Part shown: positions 2,540 through 63,100 of the stretch, piece after piece
Layout: each line of letters opens with the position of its first letter
Position numbering within the stretch: position 1 is the stretch's first letter
Assembly (NCBI GenBank): GCA_008632985.1
Contig: QPGO01000125.1
Location: 124,001 to 188,000 of the forward strand
DNA length: 64,000 nt
Direction of reading: 5' to 3'
DNA from: Psammoneis japonica
Taxonomy: Eukaryota
Translations under genes and position numbers: made by a program
The notes under the pieces: model-generated
Told to the model about the DNA's origin: nothing
The model's database searches: none
The model's input: the letters and a program-made list of their open reading frames with translations, nothing else

Positions 2540-4211
<1,672 letters not shown>

Positions 4212-4825
4212 GATTGGAGCGAATGGAATCTTCACGTTGACTGATAGTAAGGAGAGAAGGAAGTGCTTCCTGCTGCGTGTTTAATGCTTTGGTAAAGAGA
4301 CACAGGCGAGTAGAACAACAGGTGCGTCGTGCCGCAGAAAAAACACAACAGCGTCAGCTCTGAAAACTGAAAATGCGCTGATAAAAAAAATGCGATGTGT
4401 CGGTGCATCGCGCCAAAAAATCCGCGGTGAGCCAATGCGAGCTCGGTTTTTGAAAGCTCGATCTTATGGACGTACCATACGTACGTACGAACACAGACAG
4501 AGACTTACTGGGAAGGCATAATTAAAATTGAATGACCCTCTACCGTCAGTATAGTCCCTATCTATCTCGTGATATTTCTGCCCAAGAGACATTATGACTA
4601 TGTCTCTTCGTTTCTTCCAATGACTTCCGATCCACGTAGGGTACAGTATTATATTTCCGTACATACGACTATCTTTACGACCACAAGACATAATCATTAC
4701 ATAAGCCCTCGTGTTGTAAGTCGCTTCCCATCACACTTTTTTTGTGTTGACTCTCCTTTTTTAACTTGCACACACGTAACCCTCACACAAACTCTCTTTG
4801 GGGTTTGCAAAAGGATATCCAAAAG

Positions 4826-6375: not shown

Positions 6376-7820
6376 TTTTTTAAAATAGAATATTAAGAGA
6401 GCCTATGTAGAGCGGAAGGGAACAGCAGAGGGAGGCACGGAGGTAGCTGTAGTGACGGTAGAGTAGAAGGGCCGAAGGACACAGGAGGAAGGGCGTTGAG
6501 AGGAAGGTATAGGTGAGGAGGGAGAAGGGAGGGAGGATGTGAATCGGAGGATATGCGTAGAAAGGTGAAGAACAACGTTGTAGCCAAGAGTTTGAGTGGC
6601 CCACTGGGACGGGGAGGCTGTACGGTACTGTAGGTGCTCCCAAAGCGATCGGCGGACAGGCGACACCATGCGAAGTCAGCGGACGGAAGGATTGCAGACG
6701 GAGACGACAAAGCATAGAGGAAGGCGGAGCAGGAGGCAGCAGAGTGACGGAAGTCAGAGGAAGAGGACCAGGGAGGCTTGGGTTGAGAGCAGATGGAAGA
6801 AGACGTAGGACCAAAGAGCAAGTGGTGGGCAAAGCAGCGGAGACTGCCAAGGTGATTGACAGTGAAGGGGAGCAGGAAGATGCCATCGTTGTCAAGCAAA
6901 GAGAAACAACAAGGGAGCCATCAGCAGAGGAAGCCGAGGAACTTCAATCTCGCGCTCGAGTGGTGTGCCTCAGTTAAAATGGGAGAAGAGGGAGCAGGCA
7001 GACCTGGAGGAGGGCGAGAAGAAGCTTGAGGGACGGCAACGTCCACTGCAATGCAATGATGACAGGAAGGAGCGGAAAGGGAGGTGGGAGGGGGAATTGA
7101 AGTGCCGACATCGGCGGGACGGAGGAGTGGGCGGGCGGGGAGCAGGTTGGCAGGCTCGAGATGAACGTCATCAGGGGAGCGACAGAGCTCTGCAAGAGGC
7201 CCCAGGGTTTGGGCCAGGATGAAAACAGCATCTCGGAGGCCATTGGAAAGTTTGGACTTGTGAGCATGGCAACAAGAAAAGGCATGGTCGCCGCAAGCAT
7301 CAAGGATTGCATGGCCACAGGGACAGGGAGTGTTGACAAGGGACGGAGGGAGGACGGGGAGGCAAAGCTTGCAAAGAGCGGCAATGGCGTAGGCATCCGA
7401 AGAGAGACGGGAGCTTGGGAAGCAACGGGAGAAGGAATGAAGAGGAAGGCTTGTGAGCGGAGATGGCAATGAAGGCAGCGAAGATTGCACATCGCAGGAG
7501 GAGTCAGCAAGGATGGAAGCAACTGCTTGCTGTTGACATTCATGGTAGGTGCGGCGAGCCAGGCCAGGAAGAGTGGCCGATTTAACCAGGGCAGCCAAGG
7601 AAGAAGAGGAAAGGGCAGAGGCAGAGGCAAGAGCGGGGGCACAACGACGGAAAAGCACACAGAGACGCAGAGAAGAGCGAGGGTTGGACCAGGGAGATAG
7701 GGAGAGCCGAAAGCAGCGCGGAAGGGAAACAGAAGCACCGGAGGGCAGGCTGACACCGTGCGCAGCAAAGCGGAATGAGCGAAGGAGCGACACCAAAAAG
7801 GAAGGAATGGCGGCATCAGC
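6376..7820 (-). mobile_element. 5'-truncated non-LTR retrotransposon fragment, CRE-like (CCHC knuckle + restriction-like endonuclease), degenerate
   Basis: CPCGHAILDACGDHAFSC zinc knuckle followed by RPADV...IAVDV...LLPFTVNHLG, the PD-(D/E)xK RLE layout of CRE/R2-type elements. Frameshift near 6900-6925. Short A6 tail (T-run 6376-6381). No RT core and no TSD found. Confidence 0.7.
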
Positions 7821-8064: not shown

Positions 8065-9576
8065 ATGGCTGGAGCTTCCAACGGTTTCGCAAATGAGGCT
8101 TCTTCTGTTATAGTTTTATACAAGGTTGTGAATTCCAAGTCGGATGCGGAGGGATTGTTCAATGCCTTTTACATGCCTCGCGGCGATGCTGTAACACTAA
8201 AGAAGGTCAAGCAGAATTGTGCAGCACTTCATTCTTTGAACCCCGCCGGACCAGAGGGATTTCACTGGCGTGTATGTATTGAAGACAACCGTGGAGGAAA
8301 CAGCAGCAGCAGCAAAGCTGTACCGTTTTCGTGGTGGGACATTCAGGACGAGAACGCACGTCTCCCAGTCAAGGAAGCAACGCCCTCTGAGTTGGAGTAT
8401 ATGTTCTTTCCCAAGAGTCAATCTGCTTCCACCAGTAGCACGGAGCACGCCACCAAGGCTGCTAAGGGCGGTTTGAAAATGCTGGGTAAGGCTGTAAATG
8501 CCGTGGTGGATGCGGGGACTGGTGGTGGTGTGGATAGCAGCAGTCCTCGTGTCGGTGTTATTGCCTTTAAGCTGCTTGACATGATCAAGATGCATGATGA
8601 ATTCGATCATAAGCACGGTGGAGCTCATCATGTGCCACGTGCCAAAACTCCCCGTGCTCCAAAGGCTCGGACTGCCCCGCAACGACCAGCTCCCACTCCC
8701 GCTCGTCCCGCCTCACATACCCCAGCAGCTCGTCGTACAACTGCGCCTCCGGCAACTGGACCTCGGCCTTCAGCTCCCCGTCCAGCAGGAAGAACTCCTG
8801 CCGCTTCTCAGCCTCCTCGTAGGGCTACAGCACCAAAACCTGCAGCGGAAGCATCTCTCATGAACTTTGATTCTCCTACCCCTGCCGACCGCAAGGCCAC
8901 TTACAACAAATCCTCGTCCTTACCGTCCAACTTCTCTGACAACGAGACTCGTGCCCAGCGTCTTAAGCGAGAATATGCCCAGAACCAGCAAAAGCAGAAC
9001 CGAGTTTGGGATGATGTGGATCAACGATGGGTTGACGCTAGTGCTCACGGATCGAATCAAGGCAAGAGCGTACCCGCCGCTTCTAGCGCGTCTGGCTCCG
9101 ACAAAAAGGTCAAGGGCATCAAGTTGGATGCGTCCAATGCCGTGGGCAAGTCGGCCTCTGTCCAAGCGGCTGTCAACAAGCGTGTCAATGAAATGAAGGA
9201 GTCTCAGGCAAAGGCGCTTGCCGAAGTGCGGGATCGTGAGAACCAAAAGAAAAAGGAAGAAGCCGAGGAGGATTTGGTGCGGAAGCGTTTGGAACCCAAG
9301 ATCAAGGCTTGGAGTGAGGAGCATGGCAAGAAGAAACAACTTCGTGCGCTCTTGGCTAGCCTCCACACCATTCTGTGGCCTGAGGCCAATTGGAAGCAAG
9401 TTAGTTTGGGTGACATTTTGGACGAATCCAAGTGCAAGCGTTGCTTTCACAAGGCCTCGAGGGTGGTTCACCCCGACAAGACGCATCATTTGGACGCGGA
9501 GAAACGTTTCTTGGCCAAGCGCATTTTTGATGCTCTTAGTCAAGCCAAGACCGAGTTTGATGAAGGTGCCAAGTAG
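8065..9576 (+). CDS. Auxilin-like J-domain protein with N-terminal DIX-like domain
   Basis: C-terminal LRALLASLHTILW...KASRVVHPDK...AKRIFDALSQA is an auxilin-type J domain with HPD. N-terminal NAFYMPRGDAVTLKKVK...GFHWRV...WWDIQDENARLPV resembles the DIX fold. Pro-rich linker between them. Confidence 0.85.
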   Translation: MAGASNGFANEASSVIVLYKVVNSKSDAEGLFNAFYMPRGDAVTLKKVKQNCAALHSLNPAGPEGFHWRVCIEDNRGGNSSSSKAVPFSWWDIQDENARLPVKEATPSELEYMFFPKSQSASTSSTEHATKAAKGGLKMLGKAVNAVVDAGTGGGVDSSSPRVGVIAFKLLDMIKMHDEFDHKHGGAHHVPRAKTPRAPKARTAPQRPAPTPARPASHTPAARRTTAPPATGPRPSAPRPAGRTPAASQPPRRATAPKPAAEASLMNFDSPTPADRKATYNKSSSLPSNFSDNETRAQRLKREYAQNQQKQNRVWDDVDQRWVDASAHGSNQGKSVPAASSASGSDKKVKGIKLDASNAVGKSASVQAAVNKRVNEMKESQAKALAEVRDRENQKKKEEAEEDLVRKRLEPKIKAWSEEHGKKKQLRALLASLHTILWPEANWKQVSLGDILDESKCKRCFHKASRVVHPDKTHHLDAEKRFLAKRIFDALSQAKTEFDEGAK

Positions 9577-10827: not shown

Positions 10828-12665
10828 TCACCAATCTACCTCATCTTCACTTACTTCGGAAACACTTAGCAGTTCCAGATCCTTTTGCGCCAAAGCCTCG
10901 CTATGGTTAAACCATCCCTCGAACTCATGCTCGTACGGAGCTCGTTCAAAACGCGGCTCGAGTGCACAGAAGCACTTTTCTTCTTCTTCCTCCTTTTCCC
11001 TACGCAGCATATGCGGGCTTGTTGACGAAAGTCCTCGAGTGACGGCGTCAGCTGCATCATTGAAGACTCGAGTTCTTTGATTGCAGTCCGTGTTCCGCTT
11101 GGAGCATTTCCCTCTCACCCTGAATTTCAGCCTTGTTTTCTTCTTTCTCTTCACAACTGTTCCTTCCAATCCGCGGTGCTCATCGTATACTTCATCTACT
11201 TTCACCTGCACGTCTTTGACTGTTCGACGGACGGGATCACAAAGTAAGTTGGCCAACCCGTTGTAAGAAAGCCCAAACGCCCTGCCTACCAGTTTTAAGC
11301 TATCCTTGTCCACGTTTTCCATGTTTTCATACTCCACAAAGGCGTACGTTGTGAAGTCCAAGCTTTGGACATTTCTAGGGCAGTCCACTTCCTGAATCTC
11401 AACAACAGCGGTTGCATCATGACCCTCAACCATTTCCTCCGAATCTACCTTGGCCGCTTTTACGGAAGCCTTTTCATCGACCAGCCCTCCACCAGCTTTT
11501 GCTTCTTCTCGCATATCTTCTCCTGTATTCTCCTTGAGCTTCATTCGAGTCTCAGCAGTTTTTATGGCAGCTTTTCTTGCCTCGTCTTCTGCTTCTTTTC
11601 GTTCCTTCTCGGCTTTACTCACGATCTTGTCAGATCGTTTCTGCTGATCCTTCAGTTTCTCTCTCGCCTTTAGGACTTCTTTCTGTGCCTTCTCCAGTTC
11701 ACTCGCCCTTTTTTTACGAATCTCTTTGCTTTCTTTCTCAGCCTTTTCTAACAACTTTGCAAGATCCTTCTTCTGCTTTGCCGAGTCCGCTTCTTCAAGC
11801 GCTTTCTTCGCGTCCGCTTCCTTTTCTTCGGCTTCTCTCACTGCTTTAGATGTTCGACTTTCGACTTCTTCAAGTTTTTTGCTTGCATTCTCTACACCTC
11901 TTTCTACCTCTCTCCACTTTTTCTGAGCTGCCTCTATCTCTTTTTGTGCCTCTGCATCAACCTCCTTTGCTTTTTGGGCCTCTTCTTCGTATTCTTCCGC
12001 CATCTTCATGCTGTCCTTCGCCTCGTCGAGGGAGACACTTTTAATTTCTTTGCGGAAAAATGACAAGAACTCCTTCTCGGTTGGAGCACGATCATTTGAC
12101 TCCTTTGGACAGTCGCAAATGCGATCGGCATCGCCGTCGGTGACTGGCAATTTGTACGTAACCGGCTCGACGAGTAGCCGCGAATTCTGAGGCATGTCCT
12201 TTTTCCAGTGATGGAATGCTAGAGTATCAGCATTACACCTACCGCTGCATTGACCATGAAGTTGATAAAGAATTATTCTTCGAAAGTCAACCTCTCCATC
12301 TACAACCCTCTCGAAGCTTCCCATTGCACGAGCTCGGACGGAATGGACCTTGCGGTAGAGTTTGTCGCAGGGACGTCCCTCCACGGCCTTCTCGGGATCG
12401 TTGAGGCTGATATGTTTCTAATACATGTCGTGCTAGTGCATAGAGCTCAACTTCATCTGGATCCTTCTCCATGTCCTTGCCGTCGTGTTCGATCAGAATC
12501 GACGAGTCAGAACGTTTTGTCCCTCTTGCACACGCGCGCTTCTTTCTCACGTCGTAGGTCACGTGCCTGGCCATTACGCCTTCCAAGCCGTGAATCATGT
12601 CCTTGAACGGTCAATGCGACACCTAAAAGAGATGTCGCGAGCGCTAGGTATAACAAGTATCTCAT
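10828..12665 (-). CDS. Secreted Cys-rich duplicated-domain protein with central K/E/A coiled coil (two apparent frameshifts at ~12510 and ~12410)
   Basis: Signal peptide MRYLLYLALATSLLGVALTVQG. Homology to 4826-5935 continues across frames (VCKRDKTF/DSSILIEHD...ETY/SLNDPEKAVEGRPCDK). Motifs CDCPKESNDRAPTEKEF and CFCA...RAPYEHEF. Confidence 0.7.
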
Positions 12666-12798
12666 GTCAAGACTCGATTTCATTGACGGCAAAGTGTGAA
12701 GTTCTGGAGAGACAATCACTGCTCGCTCTCACACAAAAAGGACGAGGACATGGTGGGGCTTATGAGTACATGGCATCTTGCAGTCATTATGTCCTAAT

Positions 12799-12973
12799 TG
12801 CAAGATCTAGCTTGAGATGACTTGATAAAAGTTGTGGGAGAACCGAGGAGAGACCCCATCATCGCTGATGCAGCCCAAACCTAACGGTTTCCCGTACATC
12901 TAATACGTTAGTTAACACACATATGTCAGAGAGGGCACACTCGGTCATAGAGTACATGTGCCTATCTCATTCA
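12799..12973 (-). repeat. 3' LTR (175 bp)
   Basis: Aligns without gaps to 18221-18395 with 13 mismatches; TG/CA termini. Confidence 0.96.
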
Positions 12974-12985
12974 CTCTTCCCCTCC
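12974..12985 (-). other. Polypurine tract (GGAGGGGAAGAG) of the LTR element
   Basis: ctcttcccctcc on + strand, directly abutting the 3' LTR. Confidence 0.85.
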
Positions 12986-12999
12986 ATGGTGCAAGGAAC

Positions 13000-15900
13000 A
13001 CGCGCACCATTGGAACCACTCGACTAAAATTCAAAACCCACTGCACACGGAGAAGGGAACCCAGACGTTGGGAAGAAACCCTCAACTCCGACACGGCACC
13101 ACACGGCGAATGTTGATTCGCTCGACAACGTGCGGTGCTCGCAGCACCGAAACAGTCCCGTTGGCATGGACTTGCACAATTCGAAACGGACCACAAGCTC
13201 GTTCTTCCAACTTCGAAGGATCCACCGACTTGATTGATGCATCTTGACCAACTAGACAATCGCAGGAATGTCACTTCGCATTCTGTCATCACAGGTTCTC
13301 GTCAATCAACACTTGTCGGTTGGCTTGTGTCGTTGCGAGATCGGAGACAACAGGCAGGTCCAAAATCACATCACGTTGAAACACCAGAGCTCCACTTGAA
13401 ACACCCGCAGACCTTGAGTGGGAGCATCGCAAAGCATGAGAGGCTGCAGCAAGGGCATCGTCCACAATCTGCTCGGCCTGTTGAACATTTAAAGGTGGGT
13501 TGGCAACAACCACAGCACGCAAGACATCAGCTGCCGTCTGGTGCATTCGTTCACAAATGGAGTTGGCTGCAGGATTTCGAGACGTCGTCGGAGCATCAGC
13601 AATGCCCGCTTGATTCAGTGACATTTGGAATTCCCAACCAATGAATTCTCCACCATTGTCATGGATGCATCAATTCGGTCTGGGACAACGAGCCAACCAA
13701 AGGTTGCGAAACTTGTTGGTCACATGCTGAGAAGTTTTGTTGTCAATGCGCACGAGTTCAGTCAATCCAGTGACAGCATCAATGCAAGTGAGAGCGCTGA
13801 ATTCAATCTCTTGATCTTGAATCGGGATCTTCCACGGTCCAATGAGATCAGCTGCCACTTCCATCCACGGAGCTAAAGGCACTTGACGTTGAGGCAACTC
13901 TCCACATCCAGGGCCTGGTTGTTTAAATCGTTGACACGCATCGCAGACAAATTCATTGCAACGTCGCCGCAATGCAGGATGACACATGTGAGTCCGAATG
14001 CTTTCATGCAATTGCACGACTCCACAATGGCCCAATGCACGATGACACCATGCAATGACATCCGGCAACAACGCAGTGGGGGTGCAAATCTTCCAGGCTC
14101 CAGGCGGATCATTCAACTGCAAACGATGACAAATCAGGGGACGATGGTTCACAATCTTGACCACAAACTGCTGCGGATTTTGTTGTCTTTGCTGGTTCAG
14201 TTGGAGGTCTTCGAACTGGAGCTGTTGGATCCTCAATGTCTCAGTGGGATTCGGCATCTCGTCCAGTGTCGGATGATTCAAAAAGCATTCAAACAATTCA
14301 GGCTCGTCGAGCAGAGAGGAAAAGACGGCGTGAGACTCATCAGAAGGAGCAACAGGAGCACGGCAACACTTGAACCTGCAAGCGCCTAACTCCAAATCTT
14401 CCTCGGCCTTGGCCTTGGAATCCAACTTTTCAAAATGAACAATTTTTCCTTTGCGTTTGCTGCTTGGCCCAAGGCTCCTCCCCTCCGAAGGCGGATCCAT
14501 GCGTGGCAGATGAGAAAAACAATCGGCGAGCACGTCATCCTTGCCTTCGACATGCTTAAACGCAGGCACAAAATCTTTGAGGAACAGGCACCAATGAAGG
14601 ACGCGCTGTGCATTCAAAGTGCGAAAGGTGAGATTTTTGTGATCAGTGTGAACAGTGATGTCAGCACCGAGCAGCATCAAGCGAAATTCTCTGAAGCACA
14701 TGACGACGGCCAGTGGTTCCTTTTCCATTGTCGAACAGTTTCGTTGAGCCGTCAAAAGCTTTTTAGACCAACGCGCCACCGGTTTGCCATCTTGAATGAC
14801 AGCGGCGCCCATCTGGCAGTCTGATGCATCGGTGCAAACATGGAATGGCAGGTTGTGGTCAGGGCAGGCCATCAATGCTTCCACCGTGATTGCTGCTTTC
14901 ATTTCATCGAACACTTTCTGACATGATTCCGTCCATTGGAACTGACTTTTGCCTGTCAATTCAGTCAGAGGTGCAAGCAGGTGAGAACGGCGAGGCCACA
15001 TGTTGCGACAACAAGTTGCTGCACCGAGAAACGATCTGAGTTGAGCAGTGTTCTGTGGAGGTTGCATTCGTGGAATCACTTCGACCTTTTTCTTCCACGG
15101 TTTAACACCAGTCGGAGCAAGCCAATGCCCCAAGAAATCGGTTTCTTGAACACACCACTCGCATTTCAATGGATTGGCTTTCAAACCATTCTCTTCGAGA
15201 CGATGTGGCACCTTGTCAAGACGAGAGAGATGGCAATCAAAGTCAGCATCAAACGCTCCAATGTCATCAACATAAGTTTCGACATCCAAACCATGAAGAA
15301 TCTTTTCAACAATGGACTGAGCAACATCTGGAGCTGGCTTCAATCCCACAGCCATGCGACAGCACTGAAACTTTCCGCAGGGAGTTGCAATCGTGGCGAG
15401 CTCTTTGCTTTCATCGTCCAATTCCAAATTGCAGTAGAACACAGTGAGATCCAATTTCGTGAAGAATTTGTAGCCCGCTCTTCGTTGCAGCACATCTTGA
15501 ATGACCGGCAGAGGACAACCCATCGCACTCGACCGTCCTTCTTCGGAGTGACAAAAGTGCCAGCTGCCCATTCCGCAGGTCCACATGGTCGCAGCACGCC
15601 GAGATTCACCAAGTGCTTCAATTCCTTTTTGAATGCTTCTTCATTAACTCGAGCAACAGGAAACGGTTTTGAGTGACAAGGAACAGCGTTTTCATCCACT
15701 TCAAGGTGCACCTTTTCATGAGGACAGTGGCCCAACGTTCCGTCAAACAAGGTCGAATGCTTTTCCAACACCGCTGGCAGTTTCTTCTTTTGTTCTTCCG
15801 TGAGATGGTCCAGATTCCGAACTGCCTCCGCCGGATCCATTGCTTCATGCTTGGCATCGAGCACACAGGTGTCGCATCCGTCGTCGCATCCGTGGTCTGA

Positions 15901-16605
15901 CTCGTCTTCATGATCTTCATCAAATTCATCCATTCGGTCTAAAGCAACACACCAATTGCAGGACTTGGACCAATGACGAGGCTCCTTCATTGGAATTACA
16001 CGGTCTAACCAACGCAGTGTTCTTGTGTCACAGTTCAAATTGAGGCCAATCTTGTCCAAGAAATCTCGACCCAAAATGACATCATGCGCACACGGAGCAT
16101 CGAACACGTGAGCCACACAGCCGTCAATCCTCTTGGTCTTGTCGAATTCCGGCAACGCAATGTCGCTCAGGGCCACCCAACGACCCGACTGGAAAGGACC
16201 TGCAATGGTTTGAAAAGCTTGGACTCCATGTTCGTCAATGGATGGCACGGCTCCTCGAGGTAAAACTTGAGACGAGATCACAGTGTGAGAACCACCTGAG
16301 TCAAACAAGACACGCATCACACGATTCGACTCATGCCGTTGGATCAATTTTGTAACAAGCAGTGCAGATGGGACCAACGCAGCATGCGAGACTTGCGATT
16401 TCATTTTGGGGAGAGGAATGTGACACTCAAACGCATCTTGATCGAACACGTCCCCCTCTTCATTCATGTAATTTTCTGCAGTGTTTTCAAATTCAACAGG
16501 TGACAATTCGTCAGGATTTTCAAAACAGTCAAAAACAAAACATTCATCATTTCTTTCAGGTAAAACACAATCATTTTCATCAACAAATGCTTCTCTCACA
16601 GGCAA
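13000..16605 (-). pseudogene. pol: Gypsy pol (protease, RT, RNase H, integrase), disrupted
   Basis: VLFDSGGSHT protease. PKKDGRVRWV, FTKLDL and YVDD for RT, with a short deletion after RVRWV. TDASD and TDHKNL for RNase H. HHCC zinc finger, DLIGPW, DNGGEF and NSICERMHQ for integrase. Many Tyr->Cys/His changes and several frame breaks. Confidence 0.93.
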
Positions 16606-16710
16606 TTGGGAGCATTCAGCTCCGGAGCATTCAGCTCCTTCTTCTCAGAACTGCCGAGGAAACTGCCGATCTGGCTGAAACCTCGCCACACCTCCACAAC
16701 GTGGAGGGCC

Positions 16711-17900
16711 TCATCCGATCATGTCGAAATGGTGCACGTCACCACGAGGAGCTTCTCGAGCCTGGTTGTCATTGTTCACATTGTCTGCTTGAGCAGCATG
16801 TCCGTCAGCCTGACCTTGGCCTCCACGGTTGTTGTTTTCATTGCAATGATGCTGACCACCACCTTGGTTGCCATTGTTGTTTTGGTGTCCATTGTTGTCA
16901 TTGTTGTCATGACAGGTGCCACGACCTCCTTGGTTCTGGTCACCACGACCACCAAAGCGTCCACCACCTCCACGGCCTTGTCCACGGCCTCCTTGGAAAT
17001 GACCTCCGCCTCGACCTCCACCGCCACGGCCTCCACCTCGACCGCCACGGTTTTGAGGCCCACGACAGTTGGGATTGTTTGGATTGTCATGACACTGGCC
17101 CCACGCATGCCTTCCATGGTGCCACGGGACCGGACACGGGTCATTCGCCTTTGGTTGGCCCTTGCCATCCTTCTTGTCTCGGTCGCCCTTTTTGTCACTG
17201 GAGTTCCCTCCATTGCCATTGTTGGACTTGCGTTTCTTGTTGTCCTGACCATCGGCGAATGCCTTCTCATTGCTCATGCAGGCTTGGATGTCCACCATCG
17301 AGTTCGTAACAAGGTTCTTGCCCGCACGAATGCAAGACTGCTGCCAGGTCAAAGGGAAGGTGCAGAAGATGACACTTTTCTGCTCCTGCTCTGTAAGTTC
17401 AGGAACGGTTCCAGGCAAACGGTTGGTGTGACGAAACAACGTTTCCGTGTGATCAATGTGTGTTTCCGATTCCGCTGAACAAGGCTTTTTGCAAGTGGGC
17501 AAATGCATCTTCATTGTGTCGCGAGCTGTTGGTTTCACGCAGCGCAAATGATGAGCTGAGATGGCCTGATTAAATCGAGCCACCATCCATTGATTCTGTT
17601 GGACACCCGTGGTGACATTTTGCCATTTCGCCTCTGCAGCACCTTGAAGGCGATCCTTGAAAGCATCAAATAATTCTGGTCCGGTGTCACAGTCGAGCTG
17701 TCTTGCCACCTTCCGGAGCCTGTCCTCCACGTGCAACAATGACTCAATTCCATGCTCTCCTGTAAAAATGGGACACATTTTCGAAAGTTTAGCACCATCA
17801 TCAAAGGTTTGAGCGAGCTTCACTTCCTGCAATTCTGAATCCATGAATTTGGTCTTATGCTCAATGAACGCTTTCTCCAAGGTTTCTTGACACATGGCGA
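16711..17900 (-). pseudogene. gag: Gypsy gag-like ORF
   Basis: Upstream of pol in the same orientation. CPVPWHHGRHAWGQC knuckle-like motif followed by RGG-rich and Asn/Gly-rich tail. Start uncertain. Confidence 0.75.
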
Positions 17901-18220
17901 TGAACAATTTCAGCGACCAAACAATCAACAATCCACAAGATGAACGAAACAAAGTGCTCCCAATTGATCCACACAACGAGAACAATCAACAACCAAACAA
18001 GAACAAATTCAATGGCAGCAACACGAGCTTCGAGTTCAAACAAGCGCTGCTCTGAATCGCCAATTTCACGAGCACAACTGCGCGGCGATTCTGATCGACT
18101 TCAAATGAAATTTTCTGCACGCGCTCGCAAATGGATTTTCTCTCTTCTCGATGACACTCTTCGCGTTGTCATGAAACTGACAATGCAATGAACAAGCCAC
18201 AACAACGACTGCAATTACAG

Positions 18221-18395
18221 TGCAAGATCCAGCTTGAGATGACTTGACAAAAGTTGTGGGAGAACCGAGGAGAGACCCCATCATCGCTGATGCAGCCCAA
18301 ACCCAACGGTTTCCCGCATGTCCAATGCGTTAGTTAACATGCATGTGTCAGAGAGGGCACACTCGGTCATAGAGCACATGTGCCCATCTCATTCA
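18221..18395 (-). repeat. 5' LTR (175 bp)
   Basis: Second copy of the LTR, followed on + strand by TSD CTAAT. Confidence 0.96.
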
Positions 18396-19552
18396 CTAAT
18401 TCCTTGAGACATTGTCATTTCATGATGTGGTGTGACATTCATGATTTTACTTGAGGGGGGTCATCCCCGCGTTTATCCTAAAATTACCGTTGCATTTGAA
18501 CAAGGTTTTTCACAGTGTTTATTTTTGAACACAAGAATTGTTCATAGTCACACCCGATCGCGCACGAAAACGAGAACCATCAGCACCGCGACCGAAGCAC
18601 GACGATGATGACAATCATCGACATTTCTCAAAAACGTAGTTTGCCGTCTACCAACTTTTCATGTGCACACAATCTTTGTTACATGACAAACACAAAATAA
18701 ATAAGAGTTGGTAGACGGACCACCTCCGTCACAGACTTATGGCTTGTTGTTTTCACCACGGTGAAGCACGGTGAAATTCAGGAAAAATCATGCAAAACAC
18801 GAGCTATTCGGCCGAATTCGAGCTAAAAAAAGTAGCAACCGACCACCCTTAAAATTTATAATATGAAACCCATAGTCTACTCGTGAATACCGGTATAAAT
18901 GCAGTACCGGTACATACAATGCGACGTGCGTATGTACTTACTTGTACTGAATGTACAGTACAGTAGCTCTGTGACATTCCGATTAAACTATTTTTAAGCC
19001 CTCAATACAGACATTCTCCACCCAATCACATCAGCCTCGCGTCGGAACTCGAAAGGGGAAAGCTCCCTCTAAATCTAGGTAACTCTACTATCTAGTCGTC
19101 GCTATCTCTAGCTAGAAAGTAAGAGCGGACTAGGTGCCGTAGACTACAAGTTGCCCGAGGCCACAATCTGCTACTGTACAGAGACAATCCTTGGGTTCCT
19201 TTCTACTGTACCGTAAAATATTTACTCGTTGGATAGAGGTTGGTCGACAATACGAGAGGGCATCCAACCCGGCCTGGTCCTATGACTAGATCGGGAGGCC
19301 GTATCCTCTCTAGGCCCTCAAAAGCCTAGCTACTCTAGTGTGGGTGGGGACTTTAAGCGGCCAGAAAAACACTCCACGAAAAGGATTAAGTGTCACTCTC
19401 TAGGAAACAAGCCGTTGAACTTTCATTAGATCTCTCCGGCGGTTACTCAAGCAGAAGGAAAGCGACGCAAACGACTCTTTGCTCCTTTCCTCAAAATGGT
19501 GGTTAAACTAGTTACTGCCCCTCCTCCTCTAGATTTCAGCATCAGTGTGCTT

Positions 19553-22081: not shown

Positions 22082-24679
22082 TCACAGTTTTGACCATTCA
22101 AACCCAAGTGCATTGAGCAGCTGTTGTCGCTCAGGAGCAAGCTTTCCCCTCCTATACTTGACGCGTTGCTGGTCGACCCATCGACCTAGCTTGGGATCGT
22201 CCTCAAACCTACGAGGCACGGAGCAGCTACCATGAGTTTCTCTATATCGAACCTTTGGAGAAAGCCAAAAGCACCGCTATGTGAGGACATAATATACTCG
22301 AGCAAGGGATGAGCTACGCAAAGAGCACCATCAAACCGTGTCTTACCAATCTATCATACATATCCTTCCACATTTGTTCCTGGGGGAACCACGCGAATTC
22401 AATAGCATCAAGAAGCCTGCGTCGTTCATTGTAAAGAGCGTTGTTTGGGCTCCTGGCGATTTGATCTCGTCTTTGGCTTTGAACCCATTCACCTACGAGA
22501 AATTTGATATTCAAAAAAGGAAGGTATAGATCAAAGTTGTCAGAATTGAGGTCAATAGGTACACTGTTCACAGTTTCGCTTCTACCGACTGACTTCGTCG
22601 CGTCGCTTCTTCCAACGACAAGTACACTCACCAAGGCGTGGGTCCTTCTTGTATTTTTGCGGGACGAGGCAGTTACCATGCTTTGCTTTATATTGGCAGA
22701 GGCGTTCGTACATGGAATCCCATGGTTCTTGATGTTTCACCCTCCAAACAAAACCAACGCTGTCAAGCTTCGCTTTTCGTTCGTCGGAAATAGGGTCTCG
22801 TCGATGACGCTGATTTGTTACCCAACGTCCCAACTGGGGATCATCTGTAGATTTACATGAAATGCAGAGAAGGCAAAGAAACAAAAACATATAAGACTGC
22901 GATGGAAGAGAGATCGAGACGCAACTTAAGTGCATGTGACGTGAACAACAACACGAGAAAGCCGCCAAACCGGTTTTGCATGAGCAGAGAAGCGGCATTC
23001 TACGACTCTTGTGGTTGCGCCAGGATGAGTCAGACACGGAAAGCGCGTCTACTATCATTACCTTTGTAGTGCGTTGGCACCAGGCAATTTCCATGCTTTC
23101 TCTTGAATATGAGCAATCGCTCAAACATCTCATCCCATGTGCTCTGACTTCTAGGTTCACCAGGTATGTACCGCGTGTACCGTCGCAGAGGAGTTTTTGT
23201 CGTTACGGGTGAGTTGTGTCGTCCCAGTGACAACGAATGCGCTGGTAGCTCATCCTCTGCATCATCAAATATCGAGGAATCACCGTCATAGTTGTATTGA
23301 GATTCCCAGCCGGACGGATGATGGACGCCGTCGTCCTGATCATGGCTTCTAGTGTTAGCAGCACGAGCCATGATGGTGCCACTGCTCTGCTGACCCAGAT
23401 ACTGATAGCCGTGACGCTGCTGGGTGCCTGGCAGCAGCTGCAGCTCTTCAGATCGTGCTGCGGTTGCCACTGCTAGATCGGGCGTCCATTGACTTGAGGG
23501 TGGTGGTGCTTGTACAGCGCCTCCCGAAGATATCATAGCGATATCACTTGTGTAATATTCGTTTGGATGAAGTGGGCTCCTCATTGCCCTCGTCCTGCTA
23601 CTTATTGGTTTTGTACGTTTTCTGTCCCCGCGCGACGTATCATCTTCCTGAGGATCTCGTATTGATGGCTGTCCTCGCGCCACCCGAGCCGATAAATGAT
23701 TACCACCAGTGGCGTCCAGCATTGTACCAGATGACAAGAGCCACTGAGCATGAGGAGTCAATGCCGGCTTTTTTGTTGCTATTTGTTGTGTTCGTGGCAA
23801 CGCTGCTACTCCTTGAGCTGGTTGTTCTTGTTGGCTTTCTATGCCTTTGGTGCCTGCATCTGCTCGTGTAATACTACTAGATTGTGGCGTTTTCTTCATG
23901 CTGCCGCTTTCTCCGACAGTAGTGCCAACACTACCGCTAGTTGCTGCAACTGTACTGGTAGAGTTGTTAGGAACGGCAGCAGGAGGAAGAATCATCCTGG
24001 TGCTGTTGTTGTGCTGCTGGCGTCCTTGTTGGCGATTCATGTTTTCCATAGCAGCGGCCCAGAAGAGGGCAGAAGGAGATAGAATAGCAGTGGCAGGCGT
24101 CACAGTAGGCTGTACTGTTGGTAGACGCCGTGCAGCTGCGGGGCGGGAAGCAATAGCAGGAGGAATAAGAGGAGGCGGGGCCGTCATTATCGGGCGTGAA
24201 AAGGATTGAGGAGGAGGAGCAGGCAGGAGGCGGGCTGATGAAGGAGGAGGGATTAGATGATCTAGAAGACCACCACTTTGACTGTTTCTGGTATTGGTAC
24301 TCGAGACATTCGTCCATCCAAGGTTCCCTTGAGGCTGAGTTAAGCGGGATGCTGCCGAGGAGGCTGAGGAGGAAGAAGGAGGAAGATTCAACACAATCGG
24401 AGGACCGATGATGCATCCCGGCGGTGGGACGAAACCACCGCATCTTGCTTGAAGAAGTTGCCTTTGATTGATATCAGGAGCTGCTGAAGTCGGTATGACA
24501 GAACCAGGTCGCCGTTGCTGCGAATAAATAGCTCCGCTAGCCACATTGAATATAGCTGGTGGAGGCGACAGATTACTAGCAGCATCATTGCGGTTGCAGT
24601 CATCATTGTCGTGAGCAGCAGCACCATAAAGTCGAGCTCTTGTTGTAGAGGGGAGCTTATTCCTTCCTTCTTGCTTCAT
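22082..24679 (-). CDS. Helicase-associated (HA) repeat protein with long Pro/Gln/Ser-rich N-terminus, multi-exon
   Basis: Repeated W..M(F/Y)ERL..(F/Y)K..HGNCLVP...DP.LG.WV..QR......R...L..(L/V)GF.W motifs. Last exon VRYRETHGSCSVPRRFEDDPKLGRWVDQQR...GFEWSKL stops at 22082. Confidence 0.85.
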
Positions 24680-25036
24680 AGTTGCTATGACATGAGACAA
24701 AGAGGCAGGACGCCTTATATGGTTTCGTTGATGAAACAAATAGGCGGATAAGGTATTTTAGAGTAGAAGATAACAACGCGTCGCGAATAAATGCAAGACA
24801 GCAAAATGAGAAGGGCGTCGGAGAAACAGCATTTATTGAAGTATATACAAACGAATAGTAATTAACCTTGCCGTTGATATTAAGATTAGAACGACCATAA
24901 GTAACACATGGAAGGCCTTGATGTTTTTGTCGAAATAGCCTTTTGCCGGCACGCACGACGGTACTGTGAAAATTTTAGTTGTAGTCAGACTACGCTATAT
25001 ACTGTAGGGCTAGGGATGACAAAAACGAAAAGCAAG

Positions 25037-25417
25037 GAAAACAGGCATCAAAAGAAGGAGGAAGGAGGAGGTCAATTAATCACAACAGAGTGATTTATGG
25101 TAGCTCCATTTTTTGAAAAGTGGTAATTCCAGCAATAGAGAGTCACAAGCAAAGTTTCCTTTGTAACATTTATTGTTTCTACGTCGCTTCTTCAAGAGCA
25201 AAAAGGTGATCGATCATCATCGAACAGGAGAATGACAGAAACGAACGAAAACAGGCATCAGAAAGAAGGGGAGGAGGTCTAATCCCAGAGTGATTTACGG
25301 TAGCTCCATTTCTTGAAAAGTTGTAATTCTAGTAATAGAGAGTCACAAGTAAAGTTTCCTATGTATCGTTTCATCTTTCTACGTCGCTTCTTCAAGAGCA
25401 AAAAGGTGATCGATCAT
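25037..25417. repeat. Imperfect tandem duplication (~175-bp units at 25037-25217 and 25247-25417)
   Basis: Both copies run gaaaacaggcatca...cagagtgattta...tttctacgtcgcttcttcaagagcaaaaaggtgatcgatcat. Confidence 0.9.
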
Positions 25418-25611: not shown

Positions 25612-27742
25612 CTATCGCATTCTCCAAACGAACCCGATTTCTTCGAGCTTGGCCTTTCGTTCGGGAGGCAAGTTGCCCTTTTTGTTCTTGACGCGCTGTT
25701 GATCGACCCACCTATAAAATACAGTATGACATAGAAGAAGAGAACCAATCAGAATGCTATGCGGTTTAACAAAAAGAACGGCGCGGGCCGGATGCATGCG
25801 TCGATGCTAACACGACTACACAGGGACTTCAACTCACCTCCCCAACTTGGCATCCTCTTCCCAATGCCTTTAAATTTGTGAATAACAAAAACGCTCGTTA
25901 GCATTGATGAAAAAACTAGTACTGCTTGCGAACATGAACGTCCCATCAACGGCACTGGGCCGTCGAATTGTTGAGCCCCCAACCGGATCACCTACAAGTA
26001 TGCGTCGCATATTGATATTAGGACGAAGAGTATCGGCAAACAAATATATGACGTACCGAGGCACCAAGCAGTTTCCATATATCTGCTTGAACTTGACAAG
26101 GCGTTTGAACATGGCGTCCCAAATGTACTTGTGAGGACACCACTCGAAACCAAGCGAATCTAGTTTCGCCTCGCGTTCGGGCGATAGATTCTTCCTACGT
26201 TTCTTATCGCGTCTTTGAGTCTGGACCCATTCTCCCAAGCGAGAATCTTCAGCGTGCTTCTGCGGCACGAGGCAATGTCCGTGCTGTTCTTTGAACTTAG
26301 TCTGTGTGTCGCGGTATAACAATGAGAGGAGATGACGATGTTGTTAGTACATGATGAGCGCGAGCTTCAATCACAGCCGGTATCGTAACCAATGCACGAG
26401 AATATACCACAAATAAAAGCCAACTATTCACATAAGAACTCGCCGAGAATAGAGGCACGGACGAATGACTTACCAATCGCTCAAACATGGCTTCCCAGGA
26501 CTCTTGCTGCTTGATGCACCACGTGAACCCCAACGCGTTCAGCCTCTCCGTACGCTCAACGGAAAGCTGCCACTTTTTATGCCGCTGGTTCATCACCCAG
26601 CGTCCAAGCTTTGGATTTTCTGCTCTCGTGTGAAAGAAACAACGAAGCGGAACCAAGCCATCAGCGACAGACGGCGAGCATAACAAAGCAAAGATGATGG
26701 TGAGTGTACGGTACGAAGAATAAAGTACGAAGAAGCATAAGGTTCAAGAGAGCAGCAACAATATACGCTGGACGAAAGCGACGACACGCGAGAAACAACA
26801 CAATCACAGCTCAATAATGACGCCAGAGCATCAAATAGGCGACTTACTACTGTAATATGTCGGCACCAAGCAATCGCCGTGCTCGAGCTTGTAGCGAACA
26901 AGCTGGTCAAACATAGAGTCCCAGACTTCTCCATACTTGTTTGCAGCCGCCGCTTTGATTTGGTCACTCTTCTTCGAGTACTCGGTATCGTCTGGAAACG
27001 GTGGCTCTTCCTGTTCTTGTTCTGTCGTCAGTTCTTCACCCGGGTCATAGAGAGAAGAAGAAGGCGGCATGAATTGAGATGCAATCACTCCGGCAGACGA
27101 GAGAGGTGCACCAGCAGGTCGCCTTCGACGAGGCACCTGAGTGGACTGAGAAGTCCTTTGCGTACCTGGAGGGGGAGCAAAGCCGAAGTGCTGCAGCAAG
27201 AACTGCTCTTCAGGGTCATCTCGGGGAGCGGGAGGTGCGCTTCTGTTTCGCTGCTGACGTGACATTGCAACATCAGGAACAGCAGCTGCTCGTCCCATGC
27301 CCGGTGGTAAGGAGAATGCCGGTTGTCCAAAGGGAGTGATTCCACCTAACGACGGAGCACTCGCCTGGTTCGGTAAAAGAGGCCACGAGGATTGCTGCTG
27401 ATTCCCCGACGGAAAAGCAGACACGACTCCTCCAGGACGAGCTCCTGCGCTCTTACCCAAGTTCACAGCATCTTGAAGAGCGGCGCTGTGAGCCGGTTGC
27501 CATTGCTGCATTGGCACTGGTACTGGACACATAATGGGGATGATAACACTCTGCTGCTGTTGCTGCGGCAGAGCGAAAGCGAGGCTTGAAGTAGCGCCTC
27601 CTCCTCCTCCTCCTCCCATAGCGGAGGCTGGGATGTTGTAGCGATGCGAGAGAAGCGGACTGTTGATCGTTCCGCTCGGTTTACGATTACGAAGTAACGC
27701 CATATTGGGGTGACGAGTGGTCCTTGGTCGTTGAGGGGGCAT
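25612..27742 (-). CDS. Second HA-repeat protein, tandem paralog of 22082-24679, multi-exon
   Basis: WDSMFDQLVRYKLEHGDCLVP, KFKEQHGHCLVPQKHAEDSRLGEWVQTQR, RWVDQQRVKNKKGNLPPERKAKLEEIGFVW. Confidence 0.85.
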
Positions 27743-28468
27743 TGTGGCTTGATGGTATTTCTGTAGGCCGGCAAGAACGTTGCTGTTGTTTTGCTTCGAG
27801 AAGCGAATTCTGACCTTCACCGAAGTCACGCTTGTGATTACCCCGCAAAATGCTGCTTGTCGTCACTGGCCCGCCAGCCTGAAGGTCGTGAATCAAACGC
27901 ACGTTCCCTGATTTTCCGATACTGCAAAAAAAGGAGTACTTGTGGCTCGCTAGATAATTATGTTGTATATGCCTATGAAGATACCATTCTGACGTGGCTC
28001 CATTAAGTAGCAGATCAACGAATTTTCTGCATTTCGCTTTGATTGCATCCGTTCTCAATTTTGATTGGCTGATGCATGTAGCCCAATTCGGTACTGAAAT
28101 TTTTTGTAGTCGATTCAACGGATTTAACCGTTATTTCAATTATTTGTTTCTGTAGTTTCTTTATCATGAAACAATATTTCTTGTAGTGCAAAAGTGTATT
28201 ATTTTTTATGCAGATGGGACCTTTCCAACTGGCATAGGGCAATATAATTAAATATTGGATTTATGGAAAGTCGCCTGTCCGCTCCGCTATGACTGTTGTT
28301 AGCGTTCGTCATCGCTTCAAGCCAAGCCATCCGTCCTGCCCATCCATCCGCCGCGCGCAGCGCGAGAGGGCCGGCAGAAGTCATTCAGTCCACGTCATCG
28401 CGCATCGATCGCACGGCGGACTGTGCGCTTTATTTTAGCGCAAACTACACACAAGCAAGCAACCAACC

Positions 28469-47327: not shown

Positions 47328-47921
47328 GATGGATGATGGATTGGAAGTGAACAGCGATGCGATGCACCTTTTCTTTTCTCTTTTTGTGAGCGGCTCTGTG
47401 GCGTTGGGAAAAGAGGAGGCGAACTGTTATCCTATTCTACGTAGGAACCAGTACATATCTGAGTATGTAGCTGCCTGTAACCTCTCATAATCGGGTAATA
47501 ACTTATGTCTATCATTGAATAAGATATTTGATGTTCTAGTGACGTTCTTGTTGAAGTTGAGTTTATTCAATATATATGTCTGAAGCAATTAATTCAAAAT
47601 TTGGAACTCGTTTAACGGCAAAACATTCTGAATAACGGTAAATAACTGTAGATATCGATAGTCGATCGACGGAATCACTTTCAACGCGTAGGCAGCATAT
47701 GTGATTTCGTATGTAGTCTCATACCAGGAATGCAGTAGCCAACTGATGTTCTTCTGATGTTCTTGTTGAATTTGAGTTTATGCAATGCTCAGATATGAAG
47801 CAAATGAATAAAAATTTGGGCGGCAAAAAAGTTATTCGCGCAAACGTCAAAATAACCGCATGTTTGAGTTTTATTCCATTGGCAGAGCTCCAGACGACAT
47901 CAATGACCACGAACTAGCTAG

Positions 47922-53640: not shown

Positions 53641-54087
53641 TTACCCTCTGGGTTGCTGTTTTAGTGGGCATGAGCAGTGGTTGTGACAAGTTTCATCTGC
53701 AAAACATGATGGTTTGAATGTTTTTGAGCTTTTAAAGGACAACCGTCTCGGAAATGCATGGATTTGAAATGGGCAGCTGCATTTCGGTTGGAGGGGAGGA
53801 GCCCCCCTCTGCTCGATTTGCCTGGTTGTTTCACTTTCGGTCAAAAGAGATGCTATTTTTTGCTTTTTGAATTTCACCACATAGTCGATGATATGGAACA
53901 GTCGTCCTCTGAGCGAGAAAACAATTAGCACCAATCAGATCCGTGTTGTAACATCTCTCATCATGATGTACCGTAGTTCATGGATGTAATGCAAGTCAAG
54001 CGGGACTTGTGAGTCACTTGCTGATTGCTGCAATCGGTGGTCTGCTCTGTCTTGTTTGTTTACAGTTATTCAATTTCTAACGCTAAC

Positions 54088-57034: not shown

Positions 57035-57297
57035 AGTGCCAGTACCTATCAACAAACTGCAAATAGCCTGTTCTCCTGCATATATTCCACTCTGTAACGT
57101 CGTTGAACAAGCACAGCGAGGAAGAGAACACAAACGCAGTCGTGTGATGTGGTTGGACGGAAGTGCTGAGTGCTCGAGCAGAGTGAACTTCCAAAGCAAA
57201 TTTGTCAATTTGTCGGATTCCGGTAAAGATTTCATGCTCGTGGCTGGTTAACGACAAGCCCATAGCCCAATCTCTTTGTCTGACTTCGAGCCAAAGT

Positions 57298-57415
57298 AAG
57301 CTAAATGGTTAGTGTAAATCGTTAAGTGTCATTTCCACTTCGACACAAAGAAAGCTAAATGGTTAGTGTAAATCGTTAAGTGTCATTTCCACTTCCATAC
57401 AAAGACAGCTAAATG
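57298..57415. repeat. Tandem repeat, 54-bp period, ~2.2 copies
   Basis: aagctaaatggttagtgtaaatcgttaagtgtcatttccacttc at 57298 and 57352; partial third copy at ~57407. Confidence 0.92.
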
Positions 57416-57839
57416 CTTAACGGTAGTGGTCAGATTTCAAAATCTGAGCAATACAGAAATGTCAATGATGAATAAGGATTTTAGATTGCTTCTGCCGTAA
57501 ATATCATTACGCCAATGCCACTAATGAATTCACAAATGAATTTGTATTCCATCCTTTTCCTGAACTTTGATCTATCGGCATTTTCGATACGAGTGCTCGA
57601 CGCGATGACAATGAGGCATGCTTGTATGTGTCATGGCCATAAGCTGTGAGGCGTACCGTCACATTTGGATTGAACTCGGGGATCTTGATGTCGAAAGTAG
57701 CCATTTGTTTGACATTCGTGATTTTTCATCGCCCACAAACTGGGATTTCAACTGAGTCGAGTTGATGTTGGACGTGTTTCAAAGCACTGCGTTTGATGAA
57801 ACAATTGAGGGCTCTGGAATTATGGCATTTTATGCCATG

Positions 57840-62280: not shown

Positions 62281-63100
62281 GTCATGGATCCTGTGGATTC
62301 CCTGCCATCGCCTCGGCTGTCCGATCTTCGATGACATGGCAGAGTGACGCTTCTGCATCATGAATGCTTCGATACGTGTACTGTAAGAGCTGTAGCAGAA
62401 ACAAAGGCGCCGATTGATGGCGGCCGTTGATGTTGATTGATGGGCCATTTTCGCTCGTTTCTGGGAACGAGTACGGGTCTGTAGGGCGTAGGGCAGGGAA
62501 TACTGTCTGATGTCTAATTTTAAATAAATAATAATATTCAATCACGAATATAGTAATGCGGAATCCGTTTTGGATTGGAGGGAGAAGAAGCAATTGTACA
62601 TGTTCTACGTACTTCTACGCAATTTTGAAAATTTGGTTTAGATGGATACACTGATCACTTTAGAGTACCGTAGAAACCCGCACAGGGATAGCATTGCTTT
62701 TGTGGACATTTTCCATCATTGCGGCTGGAGAAGGCTTGGCGTGTTATTTATGGCGATGTCCGGAGACTGCCGGATGCATGCCAGTCGCTGATGCGTTGTT
62801 GAGGTTCAAAAAATCGAAAAGATATCGTTGATGTCGTAGCCCTACATTTCTACGTAACACACAAGTAGGAACAAAACGAATCGAATTACGCCACGTCATG
62901 CCTTTGAAGGGAAGAATTTCGACAAACCAGGCGCGCAAGCTATGGAAGCGCCGTTTTTGTCGCTCTCACAACATGTTGGATGTCACACACACACAATCCT
63001 ATAGCATCGCTAGTCTATGTACCTTTCCCGCCTTAATCTTTTAGACTATCAACACTCTACTAGTAGAGGTACTGACACTCCAAGGCGCTCGACTTTTGGT

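Follow-up and report, generated by a model that had tools for sequence, protein, structure and literature searches.

We analyzed a 64,000-nt stretch of the genome of the diatom Psammoneis japonica (contig QPGO01000125.1, positions 124,001 to 188,000 of the forward strand; hereafter "the window," with positions counted from its first letter) in which three tracts are almost devoid of the dinucleotide TpA. Tract 1 is a complete Ty3/Gypsy long terminal repeat (LTR) retrotransposon insertion on the minus strand. The LTRs start with TG and end with CA, a target-site duplication brackets the element, and the Pfam matches follow one another on the minus strand in the order aspartic protease, RVT_1 (reverse transcriptase [RT]), RT-RNase H, and integrase zinc finger (Table 1). 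Comparison of the Gypsy pol product with 535 database proteins gave identities of up to 65%, the named proteins among them being from the diatoms Nitzschia inconspicua and Mayamaea pseudoterrestris. The reading frame of the element is broken between 13669/13670 and around 15340–15640. Long open reading frames (ORFs) are present on all six frames of tract 1 because TAA and TAG need TpA, and long open frames in TpA-free sequence are no sign of integrity. The family appears to be multi-copy; the summed contig depth over the element is 30–80× that of the flank, a depth that is not a copy number. In addition, single read contigs join LTR end to LTR start (18383 to 12971, and 18395 to 12796 with 13 other letters between), and another single contig joins 12829 to 18202; these contigs may represent further members of the family, solo LTRs, or copies arranged in tandem.

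Table 1. Positions of the Gypsy element and its parts, the two further TpA-free tracts, and the high-depth neighbor within the window (O/E, observed/expected)
Feature	Positions	Strand	Remarks
Target-site duplication CTAAT, left copy	12794–12798		Identical to 18396–18400
3′ LTR, 175 nt, largely spared	12799–12973	−	12 TpA kept; 2 of 14 inferred ancestral TpA sites changed
Gypsy interior, TpA almost erased	12974–18220	−	Pfam matches and TpA count
Further open frame	13289–13669	−	No match to an integrase family; label from position alone
RT/RNase H/integrase zinc finger	13670–15640	−	Pfam RVT_1, RT_RNaseH, Integrase_H2C2
Protease	15340–16644	−	Pfam Asp_protease_2
gag-like ORF	16711–17985	−	No Pfam match; label from position alone
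5′ LTR, 175 nt, heavily hypermutated	18221–18395	−	11 of 14 ancestral TpA sites changed (+ strand: 7 CA, 4 TG)
Target-site duplication CTAAT, right copy	18396–18400		Perfect 5-bp repeat of the left copy
High-depth contrast stretch, not TpA-depleted	18507–18988		Summed contig depth ~10,000 vs ~61 in unique flank (~170×)
Tract 2, 5.7 kb	47920–53641		2 TpA; CpG O/E 0.17
Tract 3, 2 kb	57847–59850		3 TpA, all in TTAA context; CpG O/E 0.17

TpA counts were compared with the expectation from base composition (O/E), and the tracts were delimited by listing every TpA in the window, which gave 12974–18395, 47920–53641, and 57847–59850. A first-pass annotation of this DNA had reported some 28 TpA in the 5,247-nt Gypsy interior, ordinary TpA content in the flanking host DNA, and the same erasure at 47922–53640 and 57840–59850, and the counts agree with it on all of these points. 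Specifically, the interior (12974–18220) holds exactly 28 TpA versus 331.7 expected (O/E 0.084), and the whole element (12799–18395) holds 43 versus 355 (O/E 0.12). Tract 2 contains 2 TpA versus 382.5 expected (382 within the bounds first given), and tract 3 contains 3 versus 117.8 (4 versus 118 in the wider 57840–59850). Together, the three tracts span O/E values of 0.005 to 0.09, with tracts 2 and 3 at 0.005 to 0.025. In comparison, the 85 overlapping 2-kb windows of non-tract sequence ranged from 0.42 to 0.88 (median 0.60), and the window as a whole stands at 0.51. Chance is excluded as the cause of the deficit: even when the compositional expectation is halved, every tract has a Poisson p value below 1e-21. 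A 500-nt profile showed three blocks with abrupt edges and a CA+TG excess of 1.4- to 2.1-fold. The borders are sharp to ~100–200 nt, and to the right of tract 2 the only TpA up to ~53850 are in TTA context.

Further analysis of dinucleotide counts revealed that CA and TG are raised 1.4- to 2.0-fold in the tracts, reaching O/E values of 1.7–2.0 in tracts 2 and 3, where the rise is strand-symmetric (CA 641 vs TG 690 and CA 228 vs TG 229, respectively). CpG has an O/E of 0.17 in tracts 2 and 3 versus 0.82 in the Gypsy element. ApA (O/E 1.14–1.37) and TpT (1.22–1.31) are not depleted in the tracts, neither is TpC (TC O/E 0.82–1.23), and AA, TT, and AT show no depletion in tract 1. Across the tracts GpC is up and ApT is down, which we attribute from the counts to the arithmetic of GTA→GCA, TAC→TGC, ATA→ACA, and TAT→TGT changes. 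Polymerase eta favors A→G at TA and AA with a coding-strand bias, and error-prone patch repair by such an enzyme at WA motifs, triggered by lesions in methylated DNA (compare the second phase of antibody hypermutation), would suit the mild sense-strand bias that the Gypsy element displays (see below). However, the undiminished ApA and TpT, a TpA specificity that is near absolute, conversion that runs to completion, and the lack of transversions in the LTR pair leave this explanation with only a very small probability.

Two 500-nt bins outside the tracts, 7001–7500 and 9001–9500, also hold few TpA (1 and 5; O/E 0.06 and 0.19), with CpG intact. Both are GC-rich (7001–7500 is also purine-rich) and are overlapped by long low-complexity host ORFs, one of which is Pro/Ala-rich with a weak DnaJ-like end. 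We did not count these bins as further tracts; their low TpA is probably compositional rather than a product of the process that acts in the tracts.

Next, we examined the protein encoded by the Gypsy element for traces of the lost TpA. The 656-aa frame covering RT, RNase H, and integrase was aligned with 27 relatives, which yielded 385 conserved columns; a Tyr column was one in which at least 70% of the relatives carry Tyr. At the 19 conserved Tyr columns, the Gypsy copy has Tyr in 3, Cys in 12, His in 2, Phe in 1, and Arg in 1, and other conserved residues are retained at 56–100%. Its Tyr content is 0.5% versus 3.5% in the relatives. Among 89 codon differences in the 385 conserved columns, 63 are single-step and divide into 26 TpA changes, 10 CpG changes, and 27 others; the TpA type includes TAY→TGY or CAY, GTA→GCA, CTA→CCA, and, across a codon boundary, AAY→GAY after T. 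No comparable Tyr loss was found among the 120 listed relatives. When set against the relatives' mean composition, the sense-strand balance of the element is TA −208, CA +86, and TG +142.

A metagenome scan yielded 79 loci of relatives, none of them TpA-poor (O/E 0.45–1.0; mean 0.70), but its seed patterns contain Tyr and favor intact copies, so that it says little about the prevalence of the process. Among 1,245 1-kb windows in these 79 relatives, the minimum O/E was 0.31. The loss of Tyr at conserved columns together with normal TpA in the relatives indicates that the deficit is mutational and not native composition. A native or selected avoidance of TpA, as in many RNAs and viruses or as evasion of a TA-specific nuclease or of TA-targeting transposons, would agree with TpA being mildly low everywhere (O/E 0.51 in the window and 0.70 on average in the relatives). 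It is nevertheless contradicted by the data, given that conserved Tyr residues are destroyed, frames are broken, the LTRs differ only at TpA, and no 1-kb window of the relatives falls below 0.31; we assign it a negligible probability. Separately, one relative from a public assembly (P0092, 608 aa) has a Tyr content of 1.5% with raised Cys and His and carries Cys or His at 3 of the 10 Tyr columns that it covers. Judged by its sequence, this relative may represent a copy, from another data set, that has undergone partial hypermutation.

The two LTRs of one element are identical at insertion. Here, reduced to purines and pyrimidines, they still match without a difference over 177 nt (the LTR and 2 nt of the target duplication). 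At the nucleotide level, they differ at 13 positions, all of which fall inside 14 sites inferred to be ancestral TpA; these sites cover 16% of the LTR (binomial p = 4.5e-11). Every one of these differences is a transition that turns an inferred ancestral TA into CA (9 events on the + strand) or TG (4 events); there are no transversions and no non-TpA changes in 175 nt. At two sites, one copy has CA and the other has TG, indicating that the same TpA was hit independently on opposite strands. Since the LTRs differ only at TpA sites, the mutations acted on DNA after integration. With no non-TpA changes versus ~80–90% TpA loss, we estimate that the TpA process outpaces background substitution by at least two orders of magnitude.

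The LTR pair also bears on an RNA-based alternative, in which an ADAR- or ADAT-like enzyme edits A to I in the RNA of the element and reverse transcription followed by re-insertion fixes the edits. Such editing predicts A→G on the sense strand only, yet 86 of the ~228 gains are CA on that strand; it also predicts identical LTRs, yet there are 13 TpA differences in both directions, and tracts 2 and 3 are strand-symmetric. Moreover, comparable changes in Bigelowiella natans (see below) arise in integrated DNA during mitotic growth, according to the excerpted text of a recent preprint (10.64898/2026.01.13.699255). In favor of RNA editing are the sense-strand excess of A→G (12 Tyr→Cys vs 2 Tyr→His; TG +142 vs CA +86) and the preference of ADAR for a 5′ U, as cited in the excerpted text of the same preprint. 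On balance, we regard RNA editing as a highly improbable source of the pattern, and it could at most add to the process. We did not adopt a firm strand bias, as Tyr codons and TG/CA gains point one way, the classes of surviving sites lean the opposite way (not significantly), and tracts 2 and 3 are symmetric. These comparisons bear out four further statements of the first-pass annotation, namely, that both TA→TG and TA→CA occur on one strand, that the change is made at the DNA level after integration, that RNA editing alone cannot give the pattern, and that the loss is mutational.

The TpA that survive in tract 1 are unevenly distributed among sequence contexts. We found that 28 of 32 are in TAA or TTA; these contexts account for 38% of TpA elsewhere in the window and for 44% in the relatives (p = 7e-7 vs 44%). 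When the frequency of each context in the relatives is taken into account, ~3% of VTAB sites are estimated to have survived, compared with 15% and 28% of sites in the two one-sided classes and 46% of TTAA sites; TAA and TTA contexts survive 5 to 15 times better. The three survivors in the 5′ LTR are TTAG, TTAA, and ATAG, and the base after the changed A is never A in the 13 LTR events. Likewise, tracts 2 and 3 and their immediate surroundings contain 12 TpA, 11 of them in TAA or TTA. The rule is that TpA is changed preferably where it is not before A or, equivalently, where its T is not after T. This is a difference in rate and not an immunity because tracts 2 and 3 are almost clean.

Taken together, we propose that a tract-confined, DNA-level process converts A:T to G:C specifically at palindromic TpA, and we put the probability that such a TpA→TpG/CpA process is real in this genome at roughly 0.8. 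The A of either strand would be targeted, hence TA→TG or TA→CA, and the target would be inserted mobile or foreign DNA, with the surrounding genes spared. A deaminase of the TadA/ADAT2 type might convert adenine in DNA to hypoxanthine, which would be read as G at replication; the tRNA target of these enzymes, A34, always follows U33. Provided that the DNA-level process is real, an adenine deaminase is a tentative candidate for the enzyme, at a little less than even odds. Silent chromatin, and not repetition in itself, may guide the process, which, given time, would run to completion (0–3 TpA are left in tracts 2 and 3), with CpG also decayed to TpG/CpA.

At palindromic TpA, A→G and T→C are indistinguishable from sequence, and the mutated base could instead be T. 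A TET/JBP-type dioxygenase would then oxidize the thymine of TpA in silenced transposons to 5-hydroxymethyluracil (5hmU) and on to 5-formyluracil, which would mispair with G and yield T→C on either strand. 5-Formyluracil causes A:T→G:C changes. In dinoflagellates, 5hmU is made by TET/JBP enzymes and marks and silences transposons, and older work on Crypthecodinium found T to be preferentially replaced in TA and TC, as stated in excerpts of a published article (PMC11572971). On the other hand, the excerpted text on a base-resolution map of 5hmU in Breviolum minutum reports no sequence motif (PMC11071213), and TpC is not depleted in the tracts. Furthermore, 5hmU derived from T pairs normally with A, so that a further oxidation step is needed, and no evidence for 5hmU in diatoms was found in the literature searched. 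We therefore view thymine oxidation as improbable compared with the action on adenine proposed above.

We also considered whether the bases themselves are real. Contigs built from the raw reads of one run contained 0.67 of 850 sampled 31-mers of 11500–19500, a region that is 70% Gypsy element. A total of 595 read-contig pieces were at least 99% alike, and contigs from the flank enter the left LTR with 0 differences. The k-mer depth of ~61 and the longest contig of 315 kb suggest that the reads are accurate. If modified bases in silenced DNA (e.g., methylated A or C) were miscalled as TG/CA, both TA and CG, which are able to carry symmetric modifications, could read as CA/TG, as they do in tracts 2 and 3. 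Such a sequencing or assembly artifact is, however, hard to reconcile with the read contigs, with the left LTR, which has the same sequence as the right LTR and keeps its TpA, and with the intact CpG of tract 1. The same spectrum was also obtained from Illumina data in another species (10.64898/2026.01.13.699255, excerpted text), and we consider an artifact to be most unlikely. In comparison with other Gypsy copies, there are 1,172 variant places, 1,001 of them transitions and 157 transversions.

The three tracts indicate an order of events. The Gypsy element has lost ~90% of its TpA with CpG nearly intact, and tracts 2 and 3 have lost both, which implies that TpA erasure comes first and CpG decay follows. 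From its footprint, the CpG loss in tracts 2 and 3 may be the ordinary 5-methylcytosine decay of methylated transposons. In Phaeodactylum, transposons carry DNA methylation, H3K9me2/3, and H3K27me3 (PMC4504042, excerpted text).

The distribution of changes along the Gypsy element is also uneven. Of the 14 ancestral sites, 11 are changed in the 5′ LTR versus 2 in the 3′ LTR (Fisher p = 0.0018), which leaves 3 TpA in the right (5′) LTR and 12 in the left (3′) LTR, and the interior is depleted right up to the left junction. The spared 3′ LTR lies ~380 nt upstream of the start end of a host ORF (10831–12417, − strand). From this we infer that the process tracks silent chromatin and leaves promoter-side DNA untouched. 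The stretch at 18507–18988 is probably a very abundant short repeat, and bin 18501–19000 has a TpA O/E of 0.80 and a CpG O/E of 1.39. Its high depth with normal TpA suggests that high copy number alone does not bring on erasure.

The nature of tracts 2 and 3 is less distinct. Pfam matches above noise were absent from the 64 ORFs searched (43 of at least 70 aa in tract 2 and 21 in tract 3), and a 329-aa ORF of tract 2 gave one weak repetitive match when 1.84 billion proteins were searched with HMMER. Even when reduced to purines and pyrimidines, tract 2 showed neither LTRs nor inverted terminal repeats. Self-BLAST and purine/pyrimidine-space matching revealed no terminal repeats in tracts 2 and 3 and no similarity of the two to each other or to tract 1. 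A tblastn search of the window with 120 Gypsy pol proteins hit tract 1 only, apart from 3 stray matches in host regions. No Rfam match was found in the window, and the sole tandem repeat found lies outside the tracts.

A process with this signature has recently been described. As excerpts of the preprint relate, Mettrop et al. (bioRxiv 2026, 10.64898/2026.01.13.699255) observed that integrated viral DNA in B. natans undergoes TpA→TpG/CpA hypermutation de novo. Mutation-accumulation lines acquired 302 new substitutions, 231 of which were located in an integrated giant virus and virophage; 230 of these 231 were A→G or T→C, all at TpA, at a rate of ~6e-7 per site per generation (~1000× background) and in some lines only. 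The B. natans genome contains 124 TpA-poor, CpA+TpG-rich clusters, which are enriched in reverse-transcriptase and DDE domains and in unannotated ORFs, with 81% of the cluster proteins being without annotation. An ADAT2-like deaminase was proposed, with no enzyme shown. The excerpted main text makes no mention of diatoms, retrotransposons, CpG, or trinucleotide context (all from 10.64898/2026.01.13.699255).

The changes reported here resemble those of B. natans in being almost only A:T→G:C, confined to TpA, and productive of both TpG and CpA, and in affecting tracts of non-host DNA with ordinary sequence elsewhere, although here the foreign or mobile nature is shown for tract 1. The lack of annotation among most B. 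natans cluster proteins (10.64898/2026.01.13.699255, excerpted text) likewise recalls tracts 2 and 3. In contrast, B. natans is a rhizarian and the present host is a diatom, that is, a stramenopile. The proven targets there, as given in the excerpts, are a single-copy 186-kb giant-virus insert and a virophage, partly depleted (rho 0.45), unlike the dated LTR retrotransposon at O/E 0.08 and the two tracts at 0.005–0.025 found here. De novo occurrence was shown in B. natans and is only inferred here. The signature is the same, so the kind of process is already described; new are the diatom lineage, the dated LTR target, the saturation, and the rules on context, LTRs, and order. No report of TpA hypermutation in diatoms or in an LTR element was found in the literature searched, which includes the main text of the preprint. 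Two statements of the first-pass annotation are not borne out as worded. It had called the process repeat-targeted, but the higher-depth neighbor at 18507–18988 is normal in TpA and the main B. natans target is, in the preprint excerpts, single-copy. It had also known of no described pathway, for which the B. natans preprint is a precedent (10.64898/2026.01.13.699255, excerpted text).

Several other systems share parts of this signature. Like fungal repeat-induced point mutation (RIP), the process acts at the DNA level and ruins mobile elements in place through dinucleotide-specific transitions on both strands with sharp borders. RIP (RID, DIM-2) changes C:G to T:A mostly at CpA, creates TpA, and needs duplicated DNA and a premeiotic stage. 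In contrast, TpA is erased here and CpA/TpG is raised, which is the opposite direction, and the stretch at ~170× flank depth escapes. The decay of 5-methylcytosine at CpG is like the CpG→TpG/CpA change in tracts 2 and 3, but it cannot remove TpA, explains the CpG half only, and is much slower here (in the Gypsy element, CpG O/E is 0.82 with ~90% of TpA lost). ADAR hyper-editing, A-to-I editing of the ADAT type in fungi or animals, and engineered TadA adenine base editors also have A read as G and a 5′ U/T preference; however, the natural substrate of ADAR/ADAT is RNA, and the substrate here is integrated DNA on both strands. APOBEC3, itself deaminase-based, similarly inactivates retroelements by hypermutation with a dinucleotide-specific footprint, but it deaminates C to U on minus-strand cDNA before integration, which gives strand-specific G→A and identical LTRs, neither of which is seen here. 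Natural DNA editing by ADAT2 has been described in amphioxus and trypanosomes, as cited in the excerpted text of the B. natans preprint (10.64898/2026.01.13.699255).

A number of points weigh against the proposed DNA-level process. The present data pinpoint no enzyme, modified base, or targeting signal, and a mobile or foreign nature is established for tract 1 only and not for tracts 2 and 3. The excess of Tyr→Cys over Tyr→His (12 vs 2; p = 0.013) and of TG over CA gains on the sense strand (1.65×) is compatible with a contribution that is strand-biased or acts on RNA. Gene conversion or recombination with an unmutated LTR could instead account for the sparing of one LTR. The reads come from one sample and one study, possibly the assembly's own source, and are not independent proof of the bases. 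Of the 1,172 variant places, the 40 whose sequence context was available are mixed (~12 TpA-type, 9 CpG-type, 11 other transitions, and 8 transversions), but these lie mostly in one low-complexity gag stretch and are too few and too local for a spectrum. The substitution spectrum given here was derived from the LTR pair and from comparison with the relatives.

The same footprint in a diatom suggests a widespread process and not the curiosity of one strain. To our knowledge, before 2026 no cellular pathway was known that targets selected DNA tracts and there mutates A:T to G:C at one particular dinucleotide. It is conceivable, though rather doubtful, that diatoms and chlorarachniophytes share an old, dedicated defense. 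This system would convert A to hypoxanthine (or oxidize T) at TpA in chromatin-packed double-stranded DNA under a "not before A" rule and would be steered to silenced inserts and off active promoters, destroying transposons and integrated viruses far faster than cytosine-methylation decay. If true, the SAR supergroup would have its own mirror image of fungal RIP, and engineered adenine base editors would have a counterpart in nature; a natural DNA adenine editor would be of interest to both genome defense and genome engineering. The LTR retrotransposon provides an internal clock and control, and the present case adds testable rules, namely, that TAA/TTA sites are resistant, that the promoter-side LTR is spared, and that TpA is lost before CpG. 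In those diatoms that are genetically tractable, knockouts of candidate deaminases or dioxygenases could lead to the enzyme. In practical terms, the annotation of transposons and genes in genomes of this kind must allow for TpA-free, stop-poor, Tyr-free relics that give long false ORFs.

The rest of the window is gene-dense and intron-poor and carries ordinary host genes, with ORFs for BCAS2, a NatB subunit, a KH protein, a RING protein, and a MiaB-like radical-SAM enzyme. For a kinase ORF, the best named relatives are from Ditylum brightwellii (66%) and Thalassiosira oceanica (57%), followed by oomycetes (~41%); for the NatB subunit, the diatom Cylindrotheca fusiformis provides the sole named relative (33%). 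The host genes point to a diatom or a close relative, and the database contained no near-identical protein, which sets the genome apart from the published one of B. natans. The genes for the kinase and the NatB subunit are 3 kb apart, and their best or near-best relatives, P0134 and P0147, hint at a syntenic contig in a related organism. The ORFs for dihydrofolate reductase (DHFR) and thymidylate synthase (TS) are adjacent on the same strand (2865–4280, −), consistent with the bifunctional DHFR-TS gene of protists.

Helicase-associated HA domains (PF03457), members of a family expanded in diatoms, are found at the C-terminal ends of four ORFs that make up a small cluster (22585–23202, 23033–24757, 25873–26343, and 26834–27862). 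Within the same region, a pair of direct repeats of ~200 nt (25016–25417) is 84% identical and is not TpA-poor. A 54-nt tandem repeat of 2.5 copies with 91% matches (57283–57419) lies ~430 nt before tract 3 and is not TpA-poor either. Finally, an ORF that runs off the end of the window (63014–64000, +) contains an LCIB/C beta-carbonic-anhydrase domain (PF18599) of the type linked to the carbon-concentrating mechanism.

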